Under the pieces are notes generated by a model. It worked only from the letters and a program-made list of their open reading frames with translations, was not told the origin of the DNA and made no database searches. Source: an uncultured bacterium (GTDB taxonomy: Bacteria > Omnitrophota > Omnitrophia > Omnitrophales > Aquincolibacteriaceae). Taken from it: 64,000 bases of DNA. The position numbers and the translations under genes were made by a program. Each line of letters begins with the position of its first letter. Within the stretch, counting starts at the first letter, position 1. Positions 6,721-64,000 of this stretch are shown one piece after another. The DNA lies in contig CAZLTL010000011.1 of assembly GCA_964562525.1 (NCBI GenBank), positions 9,780 to 73,779 on the forward strand. Direction: 5' to 3'.

Positions 6721-7779
6721 ATGTTTTTTCTTGATAAGCTTTTAAGTTTCTTTTCGAGTGATATCGGAATTGATCTTGGTACGGCGAATACGCTTGTCTA
6801 TGTCAAAGGACAGGGCGTGGTTCTTTGCGAGCCTTCGGTTGTTGCTATTGACAAAGTCACAGGTCAGGTTTTGCGCGTGGGTGAGGAAGCAAAGCGTATG
6901 TTGGGACGTACTCCCGGAAGCATTGTTGCTATCCGTCCGATGAAAGACGGTGTTATCGCTGACTTTGATATTACCGAAGCTATGCTGCGTCATTTTATTC
7001 AAAAAGTTCACAGAAAAAACAATCTCATCAGTCCTCGTGTTGTGATCGCGGTCCCCAGCGGAATTACGGAAGTTGAAAAACGCGCCGTGAAGGATTCCGC
7101 GGAGCGCGCCGGTGCCCGTTCTCCTGTTTACCTTGTCGAAGAACCGATTGCCGCTGCGATTGGCGTGGGGCTTCCGATTCAAGAGCCGACTGCGTCAATG
7201 ATCGTGGATATTGGCGGCGGAACGACTGAAATTGCGGTCATTTCTTTAGGCGGCGTTGTTTTCTCAAAGAGTTTAAAAGTAGGCGGCGATGAATTCGACA
7301 GCGCCGTTATTTCGCATCTTAAAAAATCTTATAATTTATTGATCGGTGAACGCACCGCGGAAGAAATTAAAATTCGCATCGGTTCCGCGTATCCGCTTGA
7401 AGAAGAAATGACAATGGATGTCAAAGGCCGCGATATTCTTGCCGGACTTCCGAAAACGATTACGATTACCAGCGAAGAAATTCGTGAAGCCTTGTCCGAG
7501 TCACTTGCTTCGATTTTAGAAGGTGTGCGCATTGCCCTTGAAAGAACGCCTCCTGAACTTTCTTCTGATTTGATTGATAAGGGTGTTATTCTAGCCGGCG
7601 GTGGCTCGTTAATCCGCGGTCTTGATAAGTTAGTTAGTGAAGAAACCGGTTTGCCGGTGCATATCGCGGATGACCCGCTCACAGCGGTTGCTTTGGGAAC
7701 AGGCCGGTATTTAACTGACTTTAACCTCCTGAAAAGTTTGGCTGTCAATCGGGGCAGTGCCAGTGCCCGCGAATATTAA
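6721..7779 (+). CDS. mreB: rod shape-determining protein MreB
   Basis: 352 aa; [15 protein letters not shown] actin-fold phosphate-1 motif. Confidence 0.9.
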
Positions 7780-28981: not shown

Positions 28982-29055
28982 GCGGGATTCGTATAATGGT
29001 AATACATAAGCTTCCCAAGCTTGTAACACGGGTTCGATTCCCGTATCCCGCTCCA
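28982..29055 (+). tRNA. tRNA-Gly (anticodon CCC), CCA encoded
   Basis: hand-folded: acceptor GCGGGAT/ATCCCGC, anticodon loop TTCCCAA, T-arm ACGGG-TTCGATT-CCCGT, discriminator U, CCA. Confidence 0.8.
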
Positions 29056-53249: not shown

Positions 53250-54329
53250 ATGAACTTCTACGAGAAAGAAAAACATTCAGCCGCCGTGGCGAAATTCGAA
53301 GCCCAAAAAATCGCATTTGGGCCGTTTGCGTTTCAAGCGGCTATGGCTTTGCGGGATTTCGGGATCTTAAAGGCCGTGGAAAATCATGGCGCTGACGGTG
53401 TTGAAATCGGCACATTGGCTCAAGAGCTTGGCCTATCGCAGTATGGCGTCAAAATTTTAGCCGAAGCCGGTTTAGGAATAGGATTGCTTCTATGTAAAGA
53501 AAAAAAATATTCCCTGGCCAATACCGGTTTTTTCGTTTTGCATGATCCGATGACGCAGGTCAATATGGACTTTGTCCAAGATGTGAATTATCAGGGCTTT
53601 TTTCATCTGCAGGAAGCGATCAAAACGGGAAAGCCCGCGGGCCTTAAAGTTTTCGGAGATTGGCCCACCCTCTATCAAGCCTTGGCCTCATTTCCGCCGC
53701 GGGTTCAAAAAAGCTGGCTGGATTTTGATCACTTTTATTCTGATGCTGCGTTTAAAGAAGTGCTTCCAGTAGTTTTTAAAGACAAACCCAAAAAGTTATT
53801 GGACGTTGGTGGAAATACCGGTAAGTGGGCTTTGCAATGTGTCCAGTATGATGCTGATATTCAAGTCACGATCGCAGACTTACCGGGCCAATTACGCATG
53901 GCCGAAAGTAGTATTACCAAACAGGGGGTTGGCGAGCGTGTGGCTTATCATGCCATTGACTTACTCAACCCCAATGAAAAACTCCCTCGTGGACATCATG
54001 TGATCTGGATGAGTCAGTTTTTGGATTGTTTTTCACAAGAGCAGATCATTTCAATTCTCAAAAGGACTGCTGACATTATGGAAGCCGGAGATCAGCTTTA
54101 TATTCTTGAGACTTATTGGGATAGACAGAAATATGAGGCCGGCGCATTCTGCCTCCAGCAAACCTCGTTATATTTTGCTTGTATCGCTAACGGTAATAGT
54201 CAAATGTATCACTCGGATGATATGAAGGACTGCTTGGATGCCGCCGGCATGAAAGTCATCGAAGTCATTGATAATGTTGGCATTAGTCACACCTTGTTTA
54301 AATGTGTTAAAAAGGAGGACTCAAAATGA
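53250..54329 (+). CDS. class I SAM-dependent O-methyltransferase (with N-terminal dimerisation domain)
   Basis: LLDVGGNTGKWA motif I; 359 aa. Confidence 0.7.
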   Translation: MNFYEKEKHSAAVAKFEAQKIAFGPFAFQAAMALRDFGILKAVENHGADGVEIGTLAQELGLSQYGVKILAEAGLGIGLLLCKEKKYSLANTGFFVLHDPMTQVNMDFVQDVNYQGFFHLQEAIKTGKPAGLKVFGDWPTLYQALASFPPRVQKSWLDFDHFYSDAAFKEVLPVVFKDKPKKLLDVGGNTGKWALQCVQYDADIQVTIADLPGQLRMAESSITKQGVGERVAYHAIDLLNPNEKLPRGHHVIWMSQFLDCFSQEQIISILKRTADIMEAGDQLYILETYWDRQKYEAGAFCLQQTSLYFACIANGNSQMYHSDDMKDCLDAAGMKVIEVIDNVGISHTLFKCVKKEDSK

Positions 54330-54919
54330 AAAAAAGACACCTGTTGTTTGCGCTAGTTATGTTGAATTTGATGTCGGGATGTGTTGCGAATCAAACGTTG
54401 CCATACTCTTATCATGCAAGTGAGTATGGAGCACAAAAAATAATAAGTCCTGTTGATCTTTCTGTTAAAGATGAGCGTTCTTTTATATTGAGTGGAGATA
54501 AAGATCCGAGCTATGTGGGACATTTTCGTGGTGGATATGGAAATACCTGGGGCGTGAAAACCCAAGGCAAAATTCCTTTAGCCGAACAATTTCAAGGCGA
54601 CGTTCAAAAAGAATTGGAAATGCTTGGCGCAAGTGATCCGAACTCAGGGGTCCCAAAAAGTTTGCAAATTACAATTCTTGACTATAACTTTGACGCTTAT
54701 ATTAATGGCCGTTTTTGGTATAAATTTAAAGTTGAGGTTTACGGCGCACAAAAGAATTTATTAGAACAAGATGTAGTTGAGGGGGAGAAAGCTATTCCGG
54801 GGAGCTTTTGGGTTGGCCCCATTTTCGCTTTTAAAAGAGAAATACCCATGCTTCATGCGCAAATAATACGCAGTTTGGTTCGTGAAAATGAGAAGATTCT
54901 AAAGGCCTTGCAAGCGTAG
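54326..54919 (+). CDS. lipoprotein (hypothetical)
   Basis: lipobox LMSGC. Confidence 0.45.
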   Translation: MKKRHLLFALVMLNLMSGCVANQTLPYSYHASEYGAQKIISPVDLSVKDERSFILSGDKDPSYVGHFRGGYGNTWGVKTQGKIPLAEQFQGDVQKELEMLGASDPNSGVPKSLQITILDYNFDAYINGRFWYKFKVEVYGAQKNLLEQDVVEGEKAIPGSFWVGPIFAFKREIPMLHAQIIRSLVRENEKILKALQA

Positions 54920-54935
54920 TTGTTGAATTTTTAAA

Positions 54936-55430
54936 ATGGCACCCATGATCAAATTATACATTGTAGCTTTTGCGATAATATTACTGGGAGGGTGTTCCAC
55001 CGCGTCCCCGATTCAAAAAGTTAATATGAGTAAATCCGCATTTGATGATGCCTTATTATATAAGGGAAGAACCGCAATTATTAATGATGGGGTTTCAGAT
55101 CAAGATGCCTATAGAATTTATCACCGGGCAGCTACAGGATTTGTTTCTGTTGAATCTATTAGAAGAAGCGCTGTAAAACGAGCGAATGAGTTCTGTGGGG
55201 AAAAGGATCAGGTGATGCAGGTTTTAGAAGAGCGTACATCGGGCCCTTTTTTACCAGGTAATTGGCCGCGGATCGAACTTGTGTTTGTTTGTGCAGTAGA
55301 TCCTAATTCTTCTTATGATTCTAAAGGTGCAGATAAATATGCGCAATTGAGCAAATTAAAATCTTTGCTCGACAATGGAGTCATAACCGAGAAAGAATTT
55401 GTTGCAGAGAAAACCAAGCTATTGTCATGA
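54936..55430 (+). CDS. lipoprotein with C-terminal SHOCT-like motif
   Basis: lipobox LLGGCS; C-term LKSLLDNGVITEKEFVAEKTKLL. Confidence 0.45.
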   Translation: MAPMIKLYIVAFAIILLGGCSTASPIQKVNMSKSAFDDALLYKGRTAIINDGVSDQDAYRIYHRAATGFVSVESIRRSAVKRANEFCGEKDQVMQVLEERTSGPFLPGNWPRIELVFVCAVDPNSSYDSKGADKYAQLSKLKSLLDNGVITEKEFVAEKTKLLS

Positions 55431-56095
55431 GTGCAGGCGTCAACTTAGGCGAAGTGATGCAAACACAAAGGGGTTTCGTGCCTAAAAAAGAAGCTGAGAA
55501 TAATCAGAGTAGTAGATCTAAGTTGTTGTGTTTCCTGATCCTTGTAACAGCAATATTTCAAGCAAATTTATTTGCTGAATCAAAGCTTTATCAGTTGGAT
55601 GCTTCGCAGAGCAAACTTTTGTTTGAAGTTAGCTCAACACTCCATAATGTCCAGGGGCAGGCAAAATCTTTGACAGGCAAAGTGGATTTTGATCTGGGCA
55701 CCGGGACGGTGAATTTTCCGATGCAAATTGAAATTATGGTTAATTCTATGGACACAGGTAATTCGAGACGAGATAACGGTATGCGCAAGATGCTCCAGTC
55801 GGAGCAATATCCGGTTATTCGCTGGAGTGCCACCCAAATCGACTGTCGACCGGGCGCGGTGGCTAAAACAATGCTGTGTGATGCAGCGGGAATCTTGGAT
55901 ATTAGAAATATTAAACGTGAAAAGAAATTTCAAGTTTCACTTACTTTCCATGAAGGTCAGATTCATGCAAAAGGGGATCTGAGTATCGAGCGCAAGGACT
56001 TTGAATTGAAAACACCGTCTTTGCTTGGAATTGTGCGCGTGGGACAAGAAGTAAAAATAAAATTTGAAGCGATTTGGGTGTCGGAATCAGTTTGA
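55427..56095 (+). CDS. YceI-like polyisoprenoid/lipid-binding periplasmic protein
   Basis: signal peptide; SKLLFEVSSTLHNVQG region typical of YceI family. Confidence 0.55.
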   Translation: MSAGVNLGEVMQTQRGFVPKKEAENNQSSRSKLLCFLILVTAIFQANLFAESKLYQLDASQSKLLFEVSSTLHNVQGQAKSLTGKVDFDLGTGTVNFPMQIEIMVNSMDTGNSRRDNGMRKMLQSEQYPVIRWSATQIDCRPGAVAKTMLCDAAGILDIRNIKREKKFQVSLTFHEGQIHAKGDLSIERKDFELKTPSLLGIVRVGQEVKIKFEAIWVSESV

Positions 56096-56121
56096 GAATT
56101 ATAGTAAAGAAAGGAAATTCC

Positions 56122-56562
56122 ATGTTCAAGAGTTTAACCGTGACTTTAAGTTTGATGTTTATGCTGGTGTTTACGATGAGTGCATGCACTTCGATAAATG
56201 TGCGGCCTCTTGATGCTGCGGCTTATATGCAGCACGTGTGCATTGAAGATAATCCGAAAGTAATCGTGGAAGATTTTGTCAGCGTTGTTCGGGATGGTTT
56301 TACCCGCCACGGAATTTCCAGCGAGGTTTATTCTGGGGCGAAGCCAGCGAACTGTGAATATACTTTGACCTATAGTGCCTTGCGCTCCTGGGACGGTGTG
56401 CCGTATTTGTCAAAAGCAGAACTTCGTTTACAGAGAACTGGGCGAGAGGTTGCGGCGGCAGAATATCGTTTGAAAGGCGGGGGCGGATTTGCTCTAACCA
56501 AATATCAGGGTGTTAAAACCAAAATGGATCCTGTTATTGACGAATTGCTGAAGAATTATTAA
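56122..56562 (+). CDS. lipoprotein (hypothetical)
   Basis: lipobox TMSAC; internal ATG of ORF 56074. Confidence 0.4.
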   Translation: MFKSLTVTLSLMFMLVFTMSACTSINVRPLDAAAYMQHVCIEDNPKVIVEDFVSVVRDGFTRHGISSEVYSGAKPANCEYTLTYSALRSWDGVPYLSKAELRLQRTGREVAAAEYRLKGGGGFALTKYQGVKTKMDPVIDELLKNY

Positions 56563-56729
56563 AAAAAATGTTCGATGTAACCCGCGCAGTTTTTATTGTG
56601 TGCATTTTTAATCTTATTAAAATAGAGAGCGGGCACTGAATTATGCAAAGAGATATTTGGGCAAGATATCAACAATGATTCAGTCATTCTGACATGTCTG
56701 CTTTGCCATATATGTAGCAATTTAGCTGA

Positions 56730-56746
56730 GATCAGTTGTATCAATT
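56730..56746 (+). repeat. 17-nt motif GATCAGTTGTATCAATT (copy 1)
   Basis: second copy GATTAGTTGTATCAATT at 57022-57038. Confidence 0.5.
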
Positions 56747-56747
56747 C

Positions 56748-56834
56748 AAAGGCTGCAGGAATTGAAAAACAGTATTAGCAGTATTCTTTTCAGTTTTGAT
56801 TGGAATACGACATCTTGAGGGTGCGGAGCTTTAA
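56748..56834 (+). pseudogene. 3'-terminal fragment (approx. last 28 codons) of a paralog of the zinc-ribbon gene at 57160-57531
   Basis: ~75% nt identity to 57447-57531; translates ...FSVLIGIRHLEGAEL* versus ...LSVLIGLPHCEVTEL* in the intact copy. Confidence 0.45.
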
Positions 56835-57021
56835 TCGATTTTCATCGCTTTGATTTAGCATTGCTCATTTTTCAATCTTTAATTCAAATTAGTTTGAAGC
56901 CCTTTGTGTGAATTATTTTTAATTAGTTAAATCTGATTAAGAAAATCCTGCCTTGTTTTTTCTCTGCGAAACAAAACATTTATAAACATTTGCTGGTGCA
57001 TAGAGCGATCTATCATTAGTA

Positions 57022-57038
57022 GATTAGTTGTATCAATT
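57022..57038 (+). repeat. 17-nt motif GATTAGTTGTATCAATT (copy 2), 120 nt upstream of the zinc-ribbon gene
   Basis: see copy 1. Confidence 0.5.
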
Positions 57039-57159
57039 AATATCACTCAAAAAATAATGCAGGGTGTTCATCTATAAATTAAGAATTCATCAAGTACATT
57101 TCAAAGAGATAGATACGGGGGATGTTCATTCGAAAAAAGGAAAGGGGGGTGATGATTAA

Positions 57160-57531
57160 GTGAACGGTCTTAAAGAAAAAAGTCTGCCGAAAATCAATGA
57201 GCTTGATATGAAGTTTGAGTTTGGCGGGATTAAATGTCCTGAGCCCGGATGTCGGCAAACTCTTTTTGAGATAGAGAAGAGTTTTTTGGTTGTTGGGCCG
57301 GACATATCACTTTGCCGGAAATGCGGAAGCAAAACTTCGCTGCTGATGTATTCGTACAGCGAGACTGAACCGGGGAAATTGATTGTAAGATGGTATTGTT
57401 CGGCGTGTCGTGAGGAATTCGACCGCCACATTCCATCCATTCGAAAGTACTGCAAAGGCTGTAAAAAGTTTCAGCAGATATTTCTTTCGGTTTTGATCGG
57501 ACTTCCGCATTGTGAGGTTACGGAGCTTTAA
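57160..57531 (+). CDS. Cys-rich multi-zinc-ribbon protein (hypothetical)
   Basis: 123 aa; CPEPGC, CRKCG, CSAC, CKGC pairs; GTG start with G-rich SD. Confidence 0.45.
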   Translation: MNGLKEKSLPKINELDMKFEFGGIKCPEPGCRQTLFEIEKSFLVVGPDISLCRKCGSKTSLLMYSYSETEPGKLIVRWYCSACREEFDRHIPSIRKYCKGCKKFQQIFLSVLIGLPHCEVTEL

Positions 57532-57971
57532 TCCAATCTCTTCAGCTCGTGAAGTTTCGGGCTGGCGGGTTGGTCTCTTCTTTTTTTTCTCTCCTTTAAG
57601 TGCCACTACACTCTTTTTTGACTCTACCAGTAAATATTTTCAGACGCACTACACTTGCCTTGTTTCAAATTCGTTTTAATTACTGATATGAATCCTGCCT
57701 GAATTGTCACTATCCACTTTGTGCCATTTGAGATGCGTGAATTGTGTTTCCTCGCCTCTACACCCTAAAAAACCGTCGAAAGCATTTCCGACTTTGCAGC
57801 AGATGTTTCCCTTCAGGAAATCATCGGGCCCGACAGTTATGTGTATGGACTTGCGATATTTGATGTTCGAAGCTTAACGCCCGGACAAAAATCTGTGTTT
57901 CAAATGACCGAAAAAGAAGGGCAAAGAAGTATTACGATCAGAAACTTCAACTGGCTGAAACAGGTGAAGCC

Positions 57972-58955
57972 ATGATTGAAAAAGAGACGATTCAAAGCAC
58001 GGAGTCAAAGTCCGCAGCGCGATCAAAACTTCCTGAGAAAGAATTCTTTGACCGAGAGCCGAATTTTGATGAGCCAGGAAATGATTCAACAGGGAAGTGG
58101 AGCAAAAAGCGTTGGTTTGGCGTTCTCTTAGTTGGAGCAGCGCTTCTTCTGATGTTTGTATTTGTATCTAAAGGCTGCAGCGGTGATCGGTCCAAGAGTA
58201 ATCGACTCGCTTCAAGTGAGGAAAAGCGTGAAACCGTGACGCAGTCCTCAATGGAGCGGGCAATTCAAAACTCACGCCCTAAAGAAGATGCGCGCGTCGA
58301 ACAACTCAGTAATCCTAGGCAATTAAAGAGCAAAGAGCGTACCTTCAAAAGCGATATTGCTGTGTATCTCTATGAAAACAAACCTCAGGAAAGTGAATCC
58401 AAAAGATCGGCTCCGATTAAGGAGGCCAGACTCGGGTTGCCGTCCGGAACAAAAATTCGGGCACTGCTGGAAGATCGAGTTTTTAGTTTTAATGTCGCCG
58501 CCCCGCTTCTCGCGATTGTTCCGAAAGACTTTAAATGGGATGGGAAGACTATTATCCCGAAAGGGTCCAAATTTTTAGGCGAAGCCAATGTCTTGAAGTC
58601 TCTTGACCGGATCAATGTCAGTTTTGACTTGCTTATTCTTCCTGACGGATCGGAATTGCGGGTGAGGGCTATGGCACTTTCTGAAGATGGGGCAAGTGGC
58701 ATACGCGGGAAAGTGGATAAGCATGGGGATACGAAAATCCTTAAAGCAATTGGTGAAACGCTTCTCGGCGGTGCCAGCCTATTTGTTGGAGGTACACGAA
58801 GCGATCCTTACAGCCTCAACGATCAGTTGCGTACCAATCTCGCACAAAATTTGACGAATCAGGCTGCACAAGACTTAAGAGACGTGCGAGTTGATAAGTC
58901 TGTGACGGTGGAAGCCTCAACACCGGTGCAAGTAATGATTCTCGAGGCTATTTAA
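57972..58955 (+). CDS. VirB10/TrbI-like bitopic protein (orphan)
   Basis: 327 aa; cytoplasmic N-term, single TM (WFGVLLVGAALLLMFVFV), charged linker, C-terminal domain with TrbI-like pattern (GLPSGTKIRALLEDRV...IIPKGSKFLGEA...GSELRVRAMAL...GIRGKVDKHGD). Confidence 0.5.
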   Translation: MIEKETIQSTESKSAARSKLPEKEFFDREPNFDEPGNDSTGKWSKKRWFGVLLVGAALLLMFVFVSKGCSGDRSKSNRLASSEEKRETVTQSSMERAIQNSRPKEDARVEQLSNPRQLKSKERTFKSDIAVYLYENKPQESESKRSAPIKEARLGLPSGTKIRALLEDRVFSFNVAAPLLAIVPKDFKWDGKTIIPKGSKFLGEANVLKSLDRINVSFDLLILPDGSELRVRAMALSEDGASGIRGKVDKHGDTKILKAIGETLLGGASLFVGGTRSDPYSLNDQLRTNLAQNLTNQAAQDLRDVRVDKSVTVEASTPVQVMILEAI

Positions 58956-58970
58956 AACCAAGGAGAAAGA

Positions 58971-59219
58971 ATGACTAAATCAGGCGGGAATGGTGAGTTT
59001 AAAGAAATTCAGAAGGTGCATGTACTGCAGACTCGCAAGGGTGAAGAGTTGCATTTTTCTGTGGTTGAGCTTGGTGGGCAGCCCAAAGTGGATATTCGTT
59101 ATTTTTCAAAAACCGAAGAGGGACTACGCCCCACACATCGAGGCATCGTCGTGGACATCGCAAAATTGGACGACTTGATGGAAGGCGCTCAGAAACTGGT
59201 GTCTGTAATCGGAAAGTAA
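58971..59219 (+). CDS. PC4/YdbC-like ssDNA-binding protein
   Basis: 82 aa; VDIRYF...GLRPTHRGIVVDIAKLDDL matches PC4 C-terminal fold pattern (DIREyy..Gk.kpgkKGIsL). Confidence 0.4.
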   Translation: MTKSGGNGEFKEIQKVHVLQTRKGEELHFSVVELGGQPKVDIRYFSKTEEGLRPTHRGIVVDIAKLDDLMEGAQKLVSVIGK

Positions 59220-59238
59220 ATAAAAGCTTATTCACAAC

Positions 59239-59270
59239 AGGAGCCTGCGTTATTGCGGGCTCCTGTTTAT
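59239..59270 (+). terminator. hairpin CAGGAGCC-12 nt-GGCTCCTG followed by TTTAT
   Basis: 8-bp perfect stem seen in sequence; weak T tract. Confidence 0.4.
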
Positions 59271-59274
59271 AAAG

Positions 59275-60567
59275 GTGATCGAGATGAGACAAAAAATGTA
59301 TTTGGCAATATGGGCGGTCTTTTTATTAAGTGGAGTGAACTCCTATGCAGGAACTGCGGAGTTAAGTTTACAAGACTTTGGCAGAGTAACATCCATTGAT
59401 GATGCGATATCGCGGACTATTGATAGCAGTGCGCAAGTAAAGTCCGCGATCGCACGATTAGAGAAGGAAAAGTCGCTCTACCGTGGTAGCAGAGCCGAGT
59501 TTTTCCCTAAATTAGGTACGGAAATCTTTGCCGCAGGGGCAACGGGTCAGAAAAGTACGGTTTCATATTTTCAGACAACATTGGAACAGCCCCTATTTCA
59601 GGGCGGGAAGTTATTTTACGGGAAAAAGAAACAGAAGGTTCGTGTTGAAGCAGAAGAGATTCGGTTGCAACAGGAAAAACTAGATTTGGCATTGGAGGTA
59701 AAGTTGATTTATGCCAGTGCTTTAAATGAGAAAGAGCTGCTGAGAATCTCTCAAAATGAGGTTCGAGAAATATCGAGAAGCCAAGCCTGCTTTAAAGCGT
59801 TATATGAAAACATGATTGTATCCGCAGCTGAAATAAACCGTATCAATTCCATGCTCGCAAGTGCGAAAGAAAAAACCGTCAGGCATAAAGAAAATTACGA
59901 TTACTTAATGTCTGTGCTGAAGCAAGTCATGGATATCGATGACTCAGAAATAATCGAGCTTCAACCAGTAAGCGAGCTGCCGGCAATTGAAGACTCAGTT
60001 ATGGAGTACCTGGATGCTTATCGGAAAACAAACGCGGCATATAAGCTAACTGAACTTGCGGTGAAAGAAAAAGAATTTGAAAAAAAGATAATTCAGGCTG
60101 ACCGCTATCCTCAAATAAGTCTCGCCGTAAAGTGGGATGTTTATAACGACACCTTTGTGGGTAACAACCGCGCCATGGCCGGAATCATCGGGAAGTGGGA
60201 TATCTGGGATTTCGGACGCGTGGGTTCAAAGGTTAGTGCTAAAACTCATGAAATTGAAGAGGTTAAATGGGCTAGCCGTGCCAAGATTTTAGAGGAAGAG
60301 AGGGAAATATATCGCTTATTCCACGATGCTCGGGCAATCAGAGGAAAAATTCAAATGTTTGATGTCCAAATCGTCGAGCTGCAAGAGTATTACAAGAATG
60401 AAAAAGTTCGTCTCATTGCCGGGCAGAAAGCAGATGCCGAAATTTTGGACTCATTTCTGAGCCTTGAAAATATGCGCATATCGCAGATTGAAGCGATTAC
60501 AGATTACAGAGCAATTTTGTATAAGCTGCAAAGCAGCCTTCAATCCAGCGGAGGTAAAGATGCCTAA
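59275..60567 (+). CDS. TolC-family outer membrane efflux protein
   Basis: 430 aa; signal peptide; tandem coiled-coil/beta repeats typical of the OMF family. Confidence 0.65.
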   Translation: MIEMRQKMYLAIWAVFLLSGVNSYAGTAELSLQDFGRVTSIDDAISRTIDSSAQVKSAIARLEKEKSLYRGSRAEFFPKLGTEIFAAGATGQKSTVSYFQTTLEQPLFQGGKLFYGKKKQKVRVEAEEIRLQQEKLDLALEVKLIYASALNEKELLRISQNEVREISRSQACFKALYENMIVSAAEINRINSMLASAKEKTVRHKENYDYLMSVLKQVMDIDDSEIIELQPVSELPAIEDSVMEYLDAYRKTNAAYKLTELAVKEKEFEKKIIQADRYPQISLAVKWDVYNDTFVGNNRAMAGIIGKWDIWDFGRVGSKVSAKTHEIEEVKWASRAKILEEEREIYRLFHDARAIRGKIQMFDVQIVELQEYYKNEKVRLIAGQKADAEILDSFLSLENMRISQIEAITDYRAILYKLQSSLQSSGGKDA

Positions 60568-62113
60568 TTATTTACGACGCACCCAAGTATTTCTCCTGGC
60601 TGCCTTCTTCATCACATTGGTGGTTACGGTCGCTGTCGCCTCGACGGTCATTTACACCCGAGAAACATTTTGGGTAAGCACATTGTGGATTTCCGGGTTT
60701 TGCTTTTTGTTTTTTAATGTGGCTTTGATTTTGTTGCAGATGATTGTTCGCCCATTTATTAAAGTCCCAATATTAGAGGAGACATTTGTTGGCGATTTTC
60801 CTAAGACGGCATTGGTCTATCCGGTTCGCAATGAATATCACGGTTTGTTTGAACGGATTAATTATTCGTTGTCGGGGAACATATTGCCAAACCTTGATTT
60901 GTGGATACTTTCTGATTCCTCGGCCGACTTTGAACTTTTTGAACAGCGTATTGTTGAGCAGCTAAAAGCTAAGTACGCAGGTCGGATTTATTATCGGCGT
61001 CGAGAAGCACCGGTGGAACGCAAGCAGGGCAACATAAGCGAATTTGTTTCCAATCATCCCGAGTATCAGTTTCTCTATGTTTGCGATGCCGACAGCATGG
61101 TGGTACGAGGAACAGTTTTAAAGTTGCTTCGGAAGGCGCTCCATTTCAAGAATCAAGATGTCGCTATATTCCAGTGCATGGTGAAAATTACGCATGCGAA
61201 AACCTGGTATTCAAAGTTTGAAAAAATATGCGCGGAATCGTCTCAGAAATTCAGTTTTACTGCCTTGCAGGCGATCTTCGGCAGGCTTATTTCTTTTGGA
61301 CATCATCATCTTGTCAGAACACGGCTACTCGCAAGCATTAAGCTTCCGAAGGGGCTTCTTTCACATGACAATTGGGATACCGCGCTACTCGATCAAGCAG
61401 GATACCGCGTTGTGTTTTGTCCGGATGTTTGTGGATATGACGAAGCACCTTCGAACTATATCGAGGCTAGAGCACGAAGCAGGCGTTGGTCGCAAGGAAC
61501 TTTGCAAGGCTTGCCGCTTATTACCATGCCCAAGATAAGTTTGGCATCAAGATTCTTGGCGAGTTATGGAATTTACTTATATCTATCGGATCTTGTTTTC
61601 TTTGGGTGGGTGGTATTAGGCGTGCTGGCACGCTCCGCGCCTTTTGGTGAGCTCATTTATTTTAAAATAGATTCGATTTGGCTTGGTTTTTACACCAATA
61701 GCATTTTGAAATTTGTGCTTGGGCTTTCCTTGGGCGTTATCTTCTTCCATAAACTTGTCATTGTTCGTTCATGGAAGGACTTTCGCAGTTATTGTTATGA
61801 AACAATTCTATCCACACTCATTACGCTCAATAACTTTGTCTATGTTCCTCTTGATATCTTGACATTGCCATTGCGCAAACTGGCGTGGAAACCAATGTCG
61901 AAAAATCCGTTTCAAGAATTAAAGCTATCGCAGGCGTTTAGCAAGCTCTGGATTGGAACACTTTTTGGATTGTACGGGTTTTACTTTTGCTTAAATGAAA
62001 CGCCGTATTTCATTTGGCAGGCAACTCCGATTTTAATGAGCTTGGTGTTATCGATTCCAATGGTATATGGCACATCAAAAAATATACCCAATTCCGTTAG
62101 TCAGTGGATTTAA
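60560..62113 (+). CDS. processive family-2 glycosyltransferase, membrane-embedded (OpgH/MdoH- or cellulose-synthase-like)
   Basis: N- and C-terminal TM bundles; catalytic motifs LSDSS, RKQGN, DADS (DxD), SHDNWDTA, RSRRWSQG (QxxRW); internal ATG of ORF 60464. Confidence 0.6.
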   Translation: MPNYLRRTQVFLLAAFFITLVVTVAVASTVIYTRETFWVSTLWISGFCFLFFNVALILLQMIVRPFIKVPILEETFVGDFPKTALVYPVRNEYHGLFERINYSLSGNILPNLDLWILSDSSADFELFEQRIVEQLKAKYAGRIYYRRREAPVERKQGNISEFVSNHPEYQFLYVCDADSMVVRGTVLKLLRKALHFKNQDVAIFQCMVKITHAKTWYSKFEKICAESSQKFSFTALQAIFGRLISFGHHHLVRTRLLASIKLPKGLLSHDNWDTALLDQAGYRVVFCPDVCGYDEAPSNYIEARARSRRWSQGTLQGLPLITMPKISLASRFLASYGIYLYLSDLVFFGWVVLGVLARSAPFGELIYFKIDSIWLGFYTNSILKFVLGLSLGVIFFHKLVIVRSWKDFRSYCYETILSTLITLNNFVYVPLDILTLPLRKLAWKPMSKNPFQELKLSQAFSKLWIGTLFGLYGFYFCLNETPYFIWQATPILMSLVLSIPMVYGTSKNIPNSVSQWI

Positions 62114-62126
62114 TTACCTCAAGGAG

Positions 62127-63053
62127 ATGAAAATGACAGTCGCAGATAAAAGTAATGTAAGCGGAGCAGAAGGAAAAGAGCCTTCCTTGTTTCAGGATCA
62201 GCCCAAATCAGGTGGTGGTTTTCGATGGATGTTGATTCTGATCGCCATACTTGCCATTGCCGGGTTTTGGTATGTTTATAGCCCAGAACTAGAGACGGCC
62301 GGGCAAATTAAATCAGAGAGGTTTGTGCGGGTGGGTGTGGTTGTTCCGGGGATCTTAAAAGAACTGGATGTAAAAAAAGGAGATCGCGTTAAGGCGGGTG
62401 ATGTTGTTGCGAAACTTGAAAACCCGGATTTGGCCCAACAGCTTAAGAGCAAGCAGATTGAAATCGAAAAGCTGAATTTTGAAAAAAATGTACTAATTAA
62501 ACAGCAAGACCATGCGGCGCTTGATGTTTCACGAGTCACACTTCTGTATGAAAACAAGGTGGCAAGTAAATCGGTCGTCGAATCAAAAGAGCTGGCATTA
62601 AGTCAGTCCAAGGACGATGTGGAAGCAAAGCAGAGGGAAATTGATATGGTTCGGTCGCATCTTGAGTTGTTGAAGGCTCAAATAGCGAATATGGAGATCA
62701 GAGCACCGTTTTCGGGAGTCATACTCGCTACGCAATTGGAGATGATAGGAAATTACCTTAAATCGGGGGAAGAACTGGTTCAAATGGCAGAACCGACCAC
62801 TTTTTATCTCGAGGCGGGAATTCCGGAACGACTCATTAATAGGTATAAGGTTGGGAACAAAGTTCAGGTGCGCTTTGAGGGTTATCCGACACATATATAT
62901 AGTGGGGAAATTACGGGGCTATCCTTGTCGATCCATGAGGAGGTTGAGAAGGTATTTAAGATAAAACGCATGGTTGCCTGTCATGTCCGATTAGATGCGA
63001 TGCCGCCCGAGATTAGATATGGGACTCAGGCGGTAGTAACTATTAAGTCGTAG
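62127..63053 (+). CDS. HlyD-family periplasmic adaptor (membrane fusion protein)
   Basis: N-terminal TM, biotinyl/lipoyl-like hairpin (GDRVKAGDVVAKLE), coiled coil, C-terminal beta-barrel. Confidence 0.65.
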   Translation: MKMTVADKSNVSGAEGKEPSLFQDQPKSGGGFRWMLILIAILAIAGFWYVYSPELETAGQIKSERFVRVGVVVPGILKELDVKKGDRVKAGDVVAKLENPDLAQQLKSKQIEIEKLNFEKNVLIKQQDHAALDVSRVTLLYENKVASKSVVESKELALSQSKDDVEAKQREIDMVRSHLELLKAQIANMEIRAPFSGVILATQLEMIGNYLKSGEELVQMAEPTTFYLEAGIPERLINRYKVGNKVQVRFEGYPTHIYSGEITGLSLSIHEEVEKVFKIKRMVACHVRLDAMPPEIRYGTQAVVTIKS

Positions 63054-63155
63054 GCCGGTCTGTTTTAACGAATTGGGGCAATTGGGAAGAATAAATAGAC
63101 ATCTTTTGGTAAGATACTCAAAGTTTGAGGCAAAATCCAACTCGAGAGATGTTTA

Positions 63156-63365
63156 ATGAAATTTCCTGCAGGCACAATTGAGCTGAATGAAGCTGCTAAA
63201 AAATTCGGCTCAACTTGGGGAGCGCTTCGTAGAGCCATCTACAGAAAGCGGCTCAATGGGTTTAAGGTCGGATTAACTTGGTTTAGCACGGAATCAGAAG
63301 TTAAGCGATATCTTAAAACCCGGAATGTGGAAAAGATACCAGTGAGGTATAGAAAGAAGACTTGA
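63156..63365 (+). CDS. excisionase/AlpA-like helix-turn-helix DNA-binding protein
   Basis: 69 aa; TIELNEAAKKFGSTWGALRRAIYRKRLNGFKVG matches the HTH_17 excisionase-family pattern. Confidence 0.45.
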   Translation: MKFPAGTIELNEAAKKFGSTWGALRRAIYRKRLNGFKVGLTWFSTESEVKRYLKTRNVEKIPVRYRKKT

Positions 63366-63454
63366 GGGGGTAAAAAAATTTTGTTATTATGTGTCTATCA
63401 AATGGACACATAGAAACAAGGCATTTAAGTCAGAGTGAGTAAAAGCCGGTTCCT

Positions 63455-63493
63455 TCTTGTTGTAGCTCTTACCTAAAGTTCATAACAACAAGA
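63455..63493 (+). promoter_or_regulatory. 9-bp inverted repeat TCTTGTTGT-N21-ACAACAAGA just upstream of the second xis-like gene
   Basis: seen in sequence. Confidence 0.25.
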
Positions 63494-63501
63494 GGGGGTG
63501 T

Positions 63502-63705
63502 TTGATGGTAATTACGAATCATGCGGATGGCAGCACGCGTCTGCTTACATCAGAGGAGATAGCAGCTATTTTGAAGATTTCATTGAATACGGTGCATAGC
63601 CGGGAATGGCAGAAGCGGAACCGTTGTCCGCTAATTAAAATTGGGAAGCGACGCTACTCAGTTGAAGCAGTATTTTGGAAATGGGTTAACTCAAGGGGAT
63701 TGTGA
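63502..63705 (+). CDS. second excisionase/AlpA-like HTH protein
   Basis: 67 aa; LLTSEEIAAILKISLNTVHSR...IKIGKRRYSVEAVFWKW. Confidence 0.45.
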   Translation: MMVITNHADGSTRLLTSEEIAAILKISLNTVHSREWQKRNRCPLIKIGKRRYSVEAVFWKWVNSRGL

Positions 63706-63708
63706 TCG

Positions 63709-64000
63709 ATGGCAACACTGATCAGGCAGTACCCTGGGATTATATTTCGTGAGGGGAAAGACAAGGTTGATAAAAATGGGCGCTTTGTCTGTCAGATTAA
63801 CTTTTGTCCGTTCCCCAATAAGCGTGTTTACAAAACTATTCGGCTGGAAAGAAAGTCGTATCGTGAAGCTTCTGAAATCAGAAATTCTTGGATTAATGAA
63901 TATCTGCAAAAGCATCCGCACCAATCGCTGGAAAATAAGAAGGATCTTTCATTTTCCGAGTTGAGAAATGTTTTATTGCGGATGATGGAATACAACCACA
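63709..64000 (+). CDS. 5' end of a probable tyrosine-integrase-like ORF (Arm-type N-terminal DNA-binding domain), runs off the window
   Basis: open frame with no stop from ATG 63709 to 64000; GRFVCQINFCPFPNKRVYKTIRLERKSYREAS resembles the P4-type integrase Arm domain; stop-overlapping start (TGATCGATG). Confidence 0.4.
   Translation, partial: MATLIRQYPGIIFREGKDKVDKNGRFVCQINFCPFPNKRVYKTIRLERKSYREASEIRNSWINEYLQKHPHQSLENKKDLSFSELRNVLLRMMEYNH

Follow-up and report, generated by a model that had tools for sequence, protein, structure and literature searches.

The DNA analysed here is a 64-kb stretch of contig CAZLTL010000011.1 (the window, to which all coordinates refer), and its subject is an intact virB10/trbI gene (57972-58955, + strand) near the right end of that stretch, encoding a protein of 327 aa. 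An earlier note, made from the letters alone, had pointed to this gene as an orphan component of a type IV secretion system (T4SS), perhaps left over from a decayed conjugative element or else recruited as an envelope bridge for the neighbouring TolC, glycosyltransferase family 2 (GT2) and HlyD genes (referred to below as the trio). Comparison with related loci indicates that the apparent orphan is most probably the remnant of a T4SS-like gene cluster conserved in Omnitrophota, produced by a break inside virB9, rather than a VirB10 fold put to a new purpose. The complete cluster occupies ~16 kb, and there is good reason to regard 57.77-63.4 kb of the window as its 3' half.

The break inside virB9

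Immediately upstream of virB10, in a gap that had been taken for non-coding, lies the 3' end of a virB9/CagX gene (57769-57975, +), consisting of 68 codons and a stop without any start codon, its TGA overlapping the ATG of virB10 (ATGA). The VirB9 proteins of three relatives on long contigs (L002, L003 and L005) match the window at this remnant in tblastn searches with E values of 1e-6 to 3e-8. When all cluster proteins of the relatives are compared with the window in the same way, matches are obtained only for the 3' part of virB9, virB10, a gene for a small PC4-like protein, the three genes of the trio and a small gene near the right end (u69, see below). Neither tblastn with the relatives' T4SS proteins nor a Pfam scan of 40 window open reading frames (ORFs), including all of those of at least 300 aa, finds VirB4, VirD4, VirB11, VirB2, VirB8 or a relaxase in the window, so that the statement that virB10 stands there without any other T4SS component is correct for these proteins and incorrect only with regard to the virB9 fragment. 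The genes expected of a functional T4SS (VirB4 together with VirB2, B3, B6, B8 and B9 in the locus) are missing from the window, apart from the virB9 fragment, and are all present in the relatives; the combination of relaxase, VirD4/TraG coupling protein and VirB4 that would mark a conjugative element is likewise lacking in the window.

The junction lies at 57766-57767, between the interior of virB9 and a zinc-ribbon module (56905-57766, +) that is unrelated to the T4SS cluster, and an in-frame TAA occupies 57766-57768. Three independent sequences place it, by the limits of their homology, to the base. The closest relative, a JGI metagenome contig (L045; VirB10 97% identical in aa, 96.6% in nt over 2.5 kb), aligns from its position 623 to window 57767-60284, while its first 622 nt, which code for part of CagX/VirB9, match nothing in the window; the CagX/VirB9 gene of L045 (PF03524, at least 271 aa) overlaps the start of virB10. 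The alignment of a more distant locus (L044, 67.5% nt) also starts at 57767, despite a further 739 nt of virB9 upstream. From the zinc-ribbon side, L047 aligns to 56908-57036 and 57173-57766 and ends exactly at 57766. A separately assembled Logan contig (L001, from SRR13355622) has this junction too, with 100% identity across 2.7 kb, and is also the only record returned for VirB10 by database look-ups with exact proteins; the PC4-like and HTH_17 (helix-turn-helix, HTH) proteins described below returned none.

In L047 the breakpoint corresponds to the loop of a small hairpin inside a nested palindrome of ~170 nt (DNA fold -49 kcal/mol, z = -6.7). The window keeps the left half of this palindrome only (~57708-57766), and the right half was looked for in the window and not found. 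In the contig of L047 (JGI 3300020195 contig Ga0163150_10005986) the region 7473-7760 comprises the palindrome, immediately 3' of the zinc-ribbon module, and after it tandem repeats of ~23 nt (GAATGAGGAAyGAGTGGATTAGT-like). Among JGI metagenome contigs the left arm is found only in that contig itself, and a search of 56.4-58.1 kb and of the L047 palindrome against Rfam gave nothing meaningful. Microhomology between the parental sequences at the join is limited to CAC..T. The most likely course of events is that illegitimate recombination joined the tip of the palindrome at the 3' end of the zinc-ribbon module to a point inside virB9; the junction was probably made by breakage at the hairpin tip and subsequent microhomology joining. 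The cluster would thereby have lost its regulator gene, virB2 to virB8 and ~270 codons from the start of virB9, or these would now lie elsewhere.

The age of the break can be judged from the comparison with L045. The virB9 remnant differs by 7 synonymous and 3 non-synonymous substitutions (ratio of non-synonymous to synonymous rates, dN/dS, 0.105) and contains no frameshift or stop, and virB10 differs by 26 synonymous and 12 non-synonymous substitutions (dN/dS 0.129). Purifying selection has left its mark on the dead virB9 fragment too, which means that the break came after most of the divergence; and because its ratio is similar to that of virB10, the low ratio of virB10 is uninformative on selection after the loss. 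The undecayed state of the remnant, together with the fact that a relative with 96.6% nt identity still has virB9, argues that the break is recent.

The assignment of the 327-aa protein itself, as proposed in the earlier note, is borne out. It belongs to the VirB10/TrbI/TraF family of the T4SS outer-membrane core (PF03743), exemplified by Xanthomonas citri VirB10 (6gyb), R388 TrwE (7o3j), pKM101 TraF (3jqo) and H. pylori ComB10 (2bhv). The Pfam TrbI profile (PF03743) gives 60.3 bits, well above its cutoff of 35, and aligns residues 156-323 with profile positions 2-182 of 188; the NCBIfam equivalog model T4SS_VirB10 (NF038091) gives 46.4 bits and does not reach its cutoff of 220. By these scores the protein is a genuine, if divergent, VirB10/TrbI protein and not an orthologue of the Agrobacterium-type VirB10. 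In an AlphaFold (AF2) model built from 31 homologues, the hydrophobic stretch WFGVLLVGAALLLMFVFVS forms a transmembrane helix (residues 42-68), residues 69-155 are a disordered linker, and residues 156-327 form a beta-barrel (predicted local distance difference test, pLDDT, 75-90) with a helix-loop-helix antenna at 254-303 (helices 254-269 and 282-303). The protein is thus predicted to be bitopic with an N-terminal anchor in the inner membrane, and to share with the family a cytoplasmic N-tail, a single transmembrane helix and, beyond a long linker, a beta-barrel at the C-terminus from which the two-helix antenna projects. The best 25 matches of the model in a Foldseek search of the PDB are all VirB10 homologues with probability 1.0, among them Xanthomonas VirB10 (6gyb_C, E 1e-12), TrwE, CagY, DotG, TraB, TraF (3jqo) and ComB10, although the protein is only 13-21% identical to the solved structures. 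A proline-rich linker after the transmembrane helix is typical of the family, while not universal; the linker of the window protein is instead rich in Lys, Glu and Ser and has few Pro. The window copy differs further from the family in being without any T4SS partner. More than 120 homologues of ~320 aa were found with 43-97% identity, those of sister strains (P0001-P0003) having 86-97%; few of the homologues have a named source, and most of these are labelled Omnitrophota.

The Omnitrophota cluster and its putative exporter trio

On the long contigs of L002, L003 and L005, virB10 is the ninth gene of a single co-oriented operon. The first four genes encode a tandem sigma-70-region-4 HTH protein (preceded by ~500-800 nt without a called gene), TrbC/VirB2, a TraL/VirB3-like protein and an 837-aa VirB4; the next four encode a 255-aa protein of unknown function (u255), a TrbL/TraJ-like VirB6, VirB8 and CagX/VirB9. 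These are followed by TrbI/VirB10, the PC4-like protein, an OEP/TolC protein, a GT2 enzyme and an HlyD-like adaptor (genes 9-13), and then by a sugar-1-phosphate nucleotidyltransferase, a DUF1016/YhcG nuclease, two unknowns (one of them CBM-like) and a 69-aa HTH protein (genes 14-17), with a large serine recombinase as gene 18 in L002 and L005. In the relatives virB10 comes after virB9 with overlapping stop and start codons, a position in line with the VirB10 family.

A survey restricted to one genome per GTDB species yielded 36 loci, in which features were counted by tblastn. Nearly all loci with a named taxon are from Omnitrophota, and the others are labelled 'uncultured bacterium'. In every informative locus (32/32) virB9 lies directly upstream of virB10, and the whole set virB2-B3-B4-u255-B6-B8-B9 is found upstream in all 16 loci informative in this respect. 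Downstream, TolC is present within 700 nt in 28 of 31 informative loci, and the trio is complete in 17/19. Three loci (L033, L038 and L044) lack the trio and keep virB10 and the PC4-like gene; in L038 and L044 the nucleotidyltransferase gene follows the PC4-like gene directly, and it was not detected in L033. From these three loci it follows that the T4SS block, including the PC4-like gene, and the trio are separable modules that usually travel together, the exporter trio being, on the gene content of the loci, an optional module of the cluster.

The PC4-like gene (58971-59219, +), a conserved gene with which the T4SS block ends, was detected after virB10 in no fewer than 27 of 34 loci; the remaining seven have a gap of 250-410 nt at the expected site. 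Its product has 82 aa in the window and 82-90 aa in L002, L003 and L005. The window protein matches Pfam PC4 (PF02229) with 25.0 bits, exactly at the cutoff of 25; among 23 family members 14 match this profile at E <= 0.01 and nine miss, and a profile made from the 23 picks out human PC4 when run against the PDB (E 1e-4). The model of the window protein (pLDDT 86.8) has PC4 homologues as its top fold matches (BPSL1147, phage T5 PC4-like protein and human PC4), with a template modelling score of 0.86 (normalised to the target) and an rmsd of 1.2 A for Burkholderia BPSL1147. Profile match and modelled fold together assign the protein to PC4/Sub1, with the curved four-stranded sheet and C-terminal helix of the bacterial (BPSL1147, 5a4n) and phage T5 (4bg7) members of PF02229. 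It is set apart from the other PC4/Sub1 members encountered here by its fixed place at the end of a T4SS operon. The PC4-like partner that the earlier note had proposed is therefore a regular companion of virB10, and its dimerisation and binding of (single-stranded) DNA are putative, as suggested by the fold.

No Pfam match to VirD4, VirB11 or a relaxase is found within 10 kb of virB10 in L002, L003 or L005. The description of the window as a decayed conjugative element is accordingly right as to the decay, a T4SS-like cluster truncated at its 5' side with a virB9 pseudogene fragment, and unsupported as to 'conjugative', given this lack of relaxase and coupling protein in the relatives. None of the relatives' T4SS components reaches an NCBIfam curated cutoff; among the NCBIfam models their VirB4 is nearest to the TraC-F-type, and VirB6 faintly resembles CTnDOT TraJ. 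The ComB DNA-uptake system of H. pylori is a minimal T4SS set without coupling protein or relaxase. The gene content of the relatives (VirB2, B3, B4, B6, B8, B9 and B10, with the absences just given) is like that of such a ComB-type set, and their operon also includes a small protein with a nucleic-acid-binding fold. Unlike ComB-type sets, the Omnitrophota cluster is joined to an exopolysaccharide-type module and ends in recombinase genes.

The adjoining trio had been correctly assigned in the earlier note and is intact in the window. The first gene encodes a TolC-family outer-membrane factor of 430 aa (59275-60567, +; PF02321 at 93 bits, cutoff 22) with 42-45% identity to the relatives' gene in the equivalent position. 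The second (60464-62113, +) encodes a multi-pass GT2 synthase that resembles MdoH/OpgH: the Pfam models Glyco_trans_2_3, Glyco_tranf_2_3 and Glyco_transf_21 are above their cutoffs, and the NCBIfam MdoH models match with E values down to 7e-52, yet below their cutoffs. It is 58-62% identical to the relatives, and since the match begins at ~60572 the true start is likely the ATG at 60560. The third gene (62067-63053, +) encodes a periplasmic adaptor of the HlyD/RND type (TIGR01730 at 101.5 bits, cutoff 94.9; HlyD_D23 and HlyD_3), 32-35% identical to the relatives, whose true start is likely at ~62127-62133. A membrane-embedded, putatively processive GT2 enzyme, a membrane fusion protein and an outer-membrane factor, the parts of a tripartite exporter, are therefore encoded together. 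In Sinorhizobium meliloti, BgsA (GT2), BgsB (HlyD-like) and TolC carry out tripartite synthase-dependent export of a glucan (PMC13438883), and the cyanobacterial cellulose Xcs system is given there as having the same architecture (Maeda et al. 2018, as cited in PMC13438883). The window has the same three components, GT2, HlyD-family adaptor and TolC duct, as three adjoining genes, and in the Omnitrophota relatives a sugar-1-phosphate nucleotidyltransferase gene comes next. The window GT2 is, unlike BgsA or BcsA, closer to MdoH/OpgH, and in contrast to the Bgs and Xcs exporters the Omnitrophota trio is uniquely embedded in a T4SS-like cluster. By analogy with these systems the trio is most likely a separable accessory module that would export a glucan by itself, in the tripartite, synthase-dependent manner. 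It brings its own HlyD adaptor and matches a known tripartite architecture, which implies that it needs no VirB10 bridge.

The cluster ends at the right with u69, a conserved gene for a 69-aa HTH_17-like protein (63156-63365, +) that is 52-68% identical to the product of the gene preceding the large serine recombinase in L005; the L002 counterpart has no match to the window. In the window a second small HTH_17 (excisionase-like) protein follows (63502-63705, +; PF12728 at 26.9 bits, cutoff 27), and then an open frame (+) that starts at 63709 and runs off the end after 97 aa; in L002 and L005 the large serine recombinase comes after the first HTH gene. The pair of HTH_17 genes and the recombinases of L002 and L005 suggest an integrative element that carries the cluster as a whole.

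Several Omnitrophota metagenome-assembled genomes (MAGs) contain diverged copies of the cluster: three each in JAZDJU (L020/L023/L024) and CAISGE (L022/L029/L031), and two each in CAYLXA (L019/L036), CAZDVO (L034/L035) and CAZGCC (L025/L038). A mobile or duplicating element could account for such multiplicity, and so could mixed bins. Full-text searches of the literature found no description of a VirB-type cluster in Omnitrophota; only type II/type IV pilus-like systems beside giant genes, or an unrelated conjugative plasmid, were encountered. As none of its T4SS proteins reaches a curated cutoff, the conserved cluster looks like a distinct, undescribed T4SS lineage. The Omnitrophota are small bacteria, and some members have been described as predatory; the phylum is known here from MAG and metagenome sequences only. 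In such organisms the cluster is a candidate apparatus for interaction between cells or for the exchange of DNA. This intact cluster, although a by-product and not specific to the window, is the more useful outcome of the analysis.

Weighing of the explanations

In T4SS structures VirB10 builds the outer-membrane core complex with VirB9 and is energised through the inner-membrane ATPases. VirB10 alone would be unable to build a channel, because VirB9, VirB4 and the rest are missing; together with the PC4-like protein it would be a leftover, non-functional for secretion and heading for decay. Read-through from the zinc-ribbon gene, which has the same orientation, may perhaps still provide for transcription of the trio, as no terminator-like site was found on the + strand between that gene and the trio. 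A promoter scan gave one promoter-like site where 4.9 are expected by chance, using a sigma-70 consensus from which Omnitrophota promoters may differ.

Several observations weigh against so simple an account. The view is limited to 64 kb, so that the 5' half may sit elsewhere in the genome, or a second intact cluster may be present, as several MAGs hold two to three copies. All five retained genes (virB10 to hlyD) are intact, so that continued function is possible. The argument for a recent break depends on only ten substitutions in the remnant. Finally, L001 may come from the same sample as the window and thus may not be independent support for the junction, and the junction sequence has no match in JGI metagenome contigs.

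The first of these points leads to the alternative that survives best, which is nevertheless improbable: an inversion or translocation with one end in the palindrome would have moved the 5' half, or another complete cluster would exist, leaving VirB10 as a spare or partial duplicate in a cell whose T4SS still works. The multiple copies in other Omnitrophota MAGs are in its favour, as are the recombinase genes at the right end of the relatives' clusters and the two excisionase-like HTH genes at that of the window, and the missing right half of the palindrome is what a reciprocal junction elsewhere would be expected to produce. However, virB9 is physically split, and therefore no full VirB9 could be made from the window copy even if the 5' half survives; nor does tblastn detect a second copy within the 64 kb.

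Recruitment of VirB10 by the exporter, either after loss of the T4SS or generally in Omnitrophota, is very unlikely. VirB10 would here be the inner-to-outer-membrane bridge or an energy sensor for the trio, with the PC4-like protein as a cofactor, and the order virB10, PC4-like gene, TolC, GT2, HlyD is indeed kept across relatives that are ~43-60% identical in VirB10, just as the five genes are intact in the window and virB10 has a dN/dS of 0.13. But in informative loci VirB10 never occurs without VirB9, nor without the set from VirB2 to VirB9 (32/32 and 16/16, as above); the truncation happened recently and is younger than the dN/dS signal, the dead virB9 remnant having the same ratio; the trio has an adaptor of its own, with TIGR01730 above cutoff; and virB10 and the PC4-like gene persist in the three loci that lack the trio, so that both belong to the T4SS block and not to the exporter. 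The bridge proposed in the earlier note is contradicted by these observations. Equally doubtful is a broader form of the idea, in which the T4SS-like apparatus and the glucan exporter would be one functional unit in Omnitrophota with VirB10 and the PC4-like protein as the interface, and the window a natural 'minimal' state in which VirB10 still works with the exporter; if true, this unit might be, for example, a polysaccharide-assisted contact or DNA-transfer machine.

The weakest alternative, an assembly chimera in which two strains or elements were misjoined at 57766/57767 and the real genome has an intact cluster, is suggested by the metagenomic appearance of the window (its relatives being MAG and metagenome contigs), by the position of the break in a palindrome, where assemblers frequently fail, and by a Logan contig (L048) that ends at the equivalent of 57753, just before the junction, but it is highly improbable because the identical junction recurs over 2.7 kb in the separately assembled L001 and no k-mer is shared that could mislead an assembler, CAC..T being far shorter than any assembler k-mer, and both sides of the join are co-oriented with normal coding density.

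Truncation of the cluster inside virB9 thus remains the favoured explanation. For the window itself the result is mainly corrective: a recent deletion, with endpoints placed to the base, explains the apparent orphan. A decayed cluster is an ordinary kind of arrangement and gives no ground for seeing the VirB10 fold put to a new use.

The zinc-ribbon module and the window setting

The ORFs on which the earlier note was based all exist as it had placed them, including that of the zinc-ribbon protein upstream of the junction. This 123-aa protein (57160-57531, +) and a conserved 3' flank of ~235 nt form the zinc-ribbon module. The four CxxC motifs ascribed to it are in fact four pairs of invariant Cys (eight residues) of which three are CxxC and one is Cx4C. 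Only four homologues were found among 5.8 billion clusters. The module is 78% identical in nt to L047 (protein 82% in aa) and 83% in nt to L048, and its neighbours differ in each case: L047 has primase and PD-(D/E)XK nuclease genes beside it, L048 a P-type ATPase gene and the window an Sbal_3080 lipoprotein gene. The gene is absent from all of the fetched T4SS loci. Its absence there, its three unrelated contexts and the end of its homology block at the junction exclude the zinc-ribbon protein as a T4SS partner, a role that had been suggested by its position; it is an unrelated module joined to the cluster at the breakpoint.

The remainder of the window, all genes of which lie on the + strand, begins with housekeeping genes (1-29 kb: purD, glyA, aroA, mreB, PBP2, rodA, thrS, pheST, accC, pfk, tRNA-Pro and tRNA-Gly). 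GC content is 0.46-0.51 over 1-28 kb and 36-54 kb (~0.47 before the drop) and 0.40-0.45 at 54000-64000, which fits an acquired island beginning upstream of the truncated cluster. Right after tRNA-Gly (28982-29055), a co-oriented cluster (29547-54329) has the appearance of an aryl-polyene-type lipid/pigment pathway, with an aromatic amino-acid lyase, at least four ketoacyl synthases, AMP-binding enzymes and an MMPL/RND-like exporter, and also a GT2+DUF2062 protein, an LpxL-like acyltransferase, an 869-aa fusion of FAD-oxidoreductase and AMP-binding domains and an O-methyltransferase. It is followed at 54.3-56.6 kb by small lipoproteins (SHOCT-domain, YceI-like and Sbal_3080 family). Between these and the zinc-ribbon module lies the degenerate 3' end of a zinc-ribbon paralogue (56782-56846, +), a 65-nt direct repeat (D1) of 57479-57543 with 75% identity and a spacing of 697 nt; the first copy still reads ...SVLIGIRHLEGAEL* and the second ...SVLIGLPHCEVTEL* (* being the stop), which suggests former tandem copies of the zinc-ribbon module.

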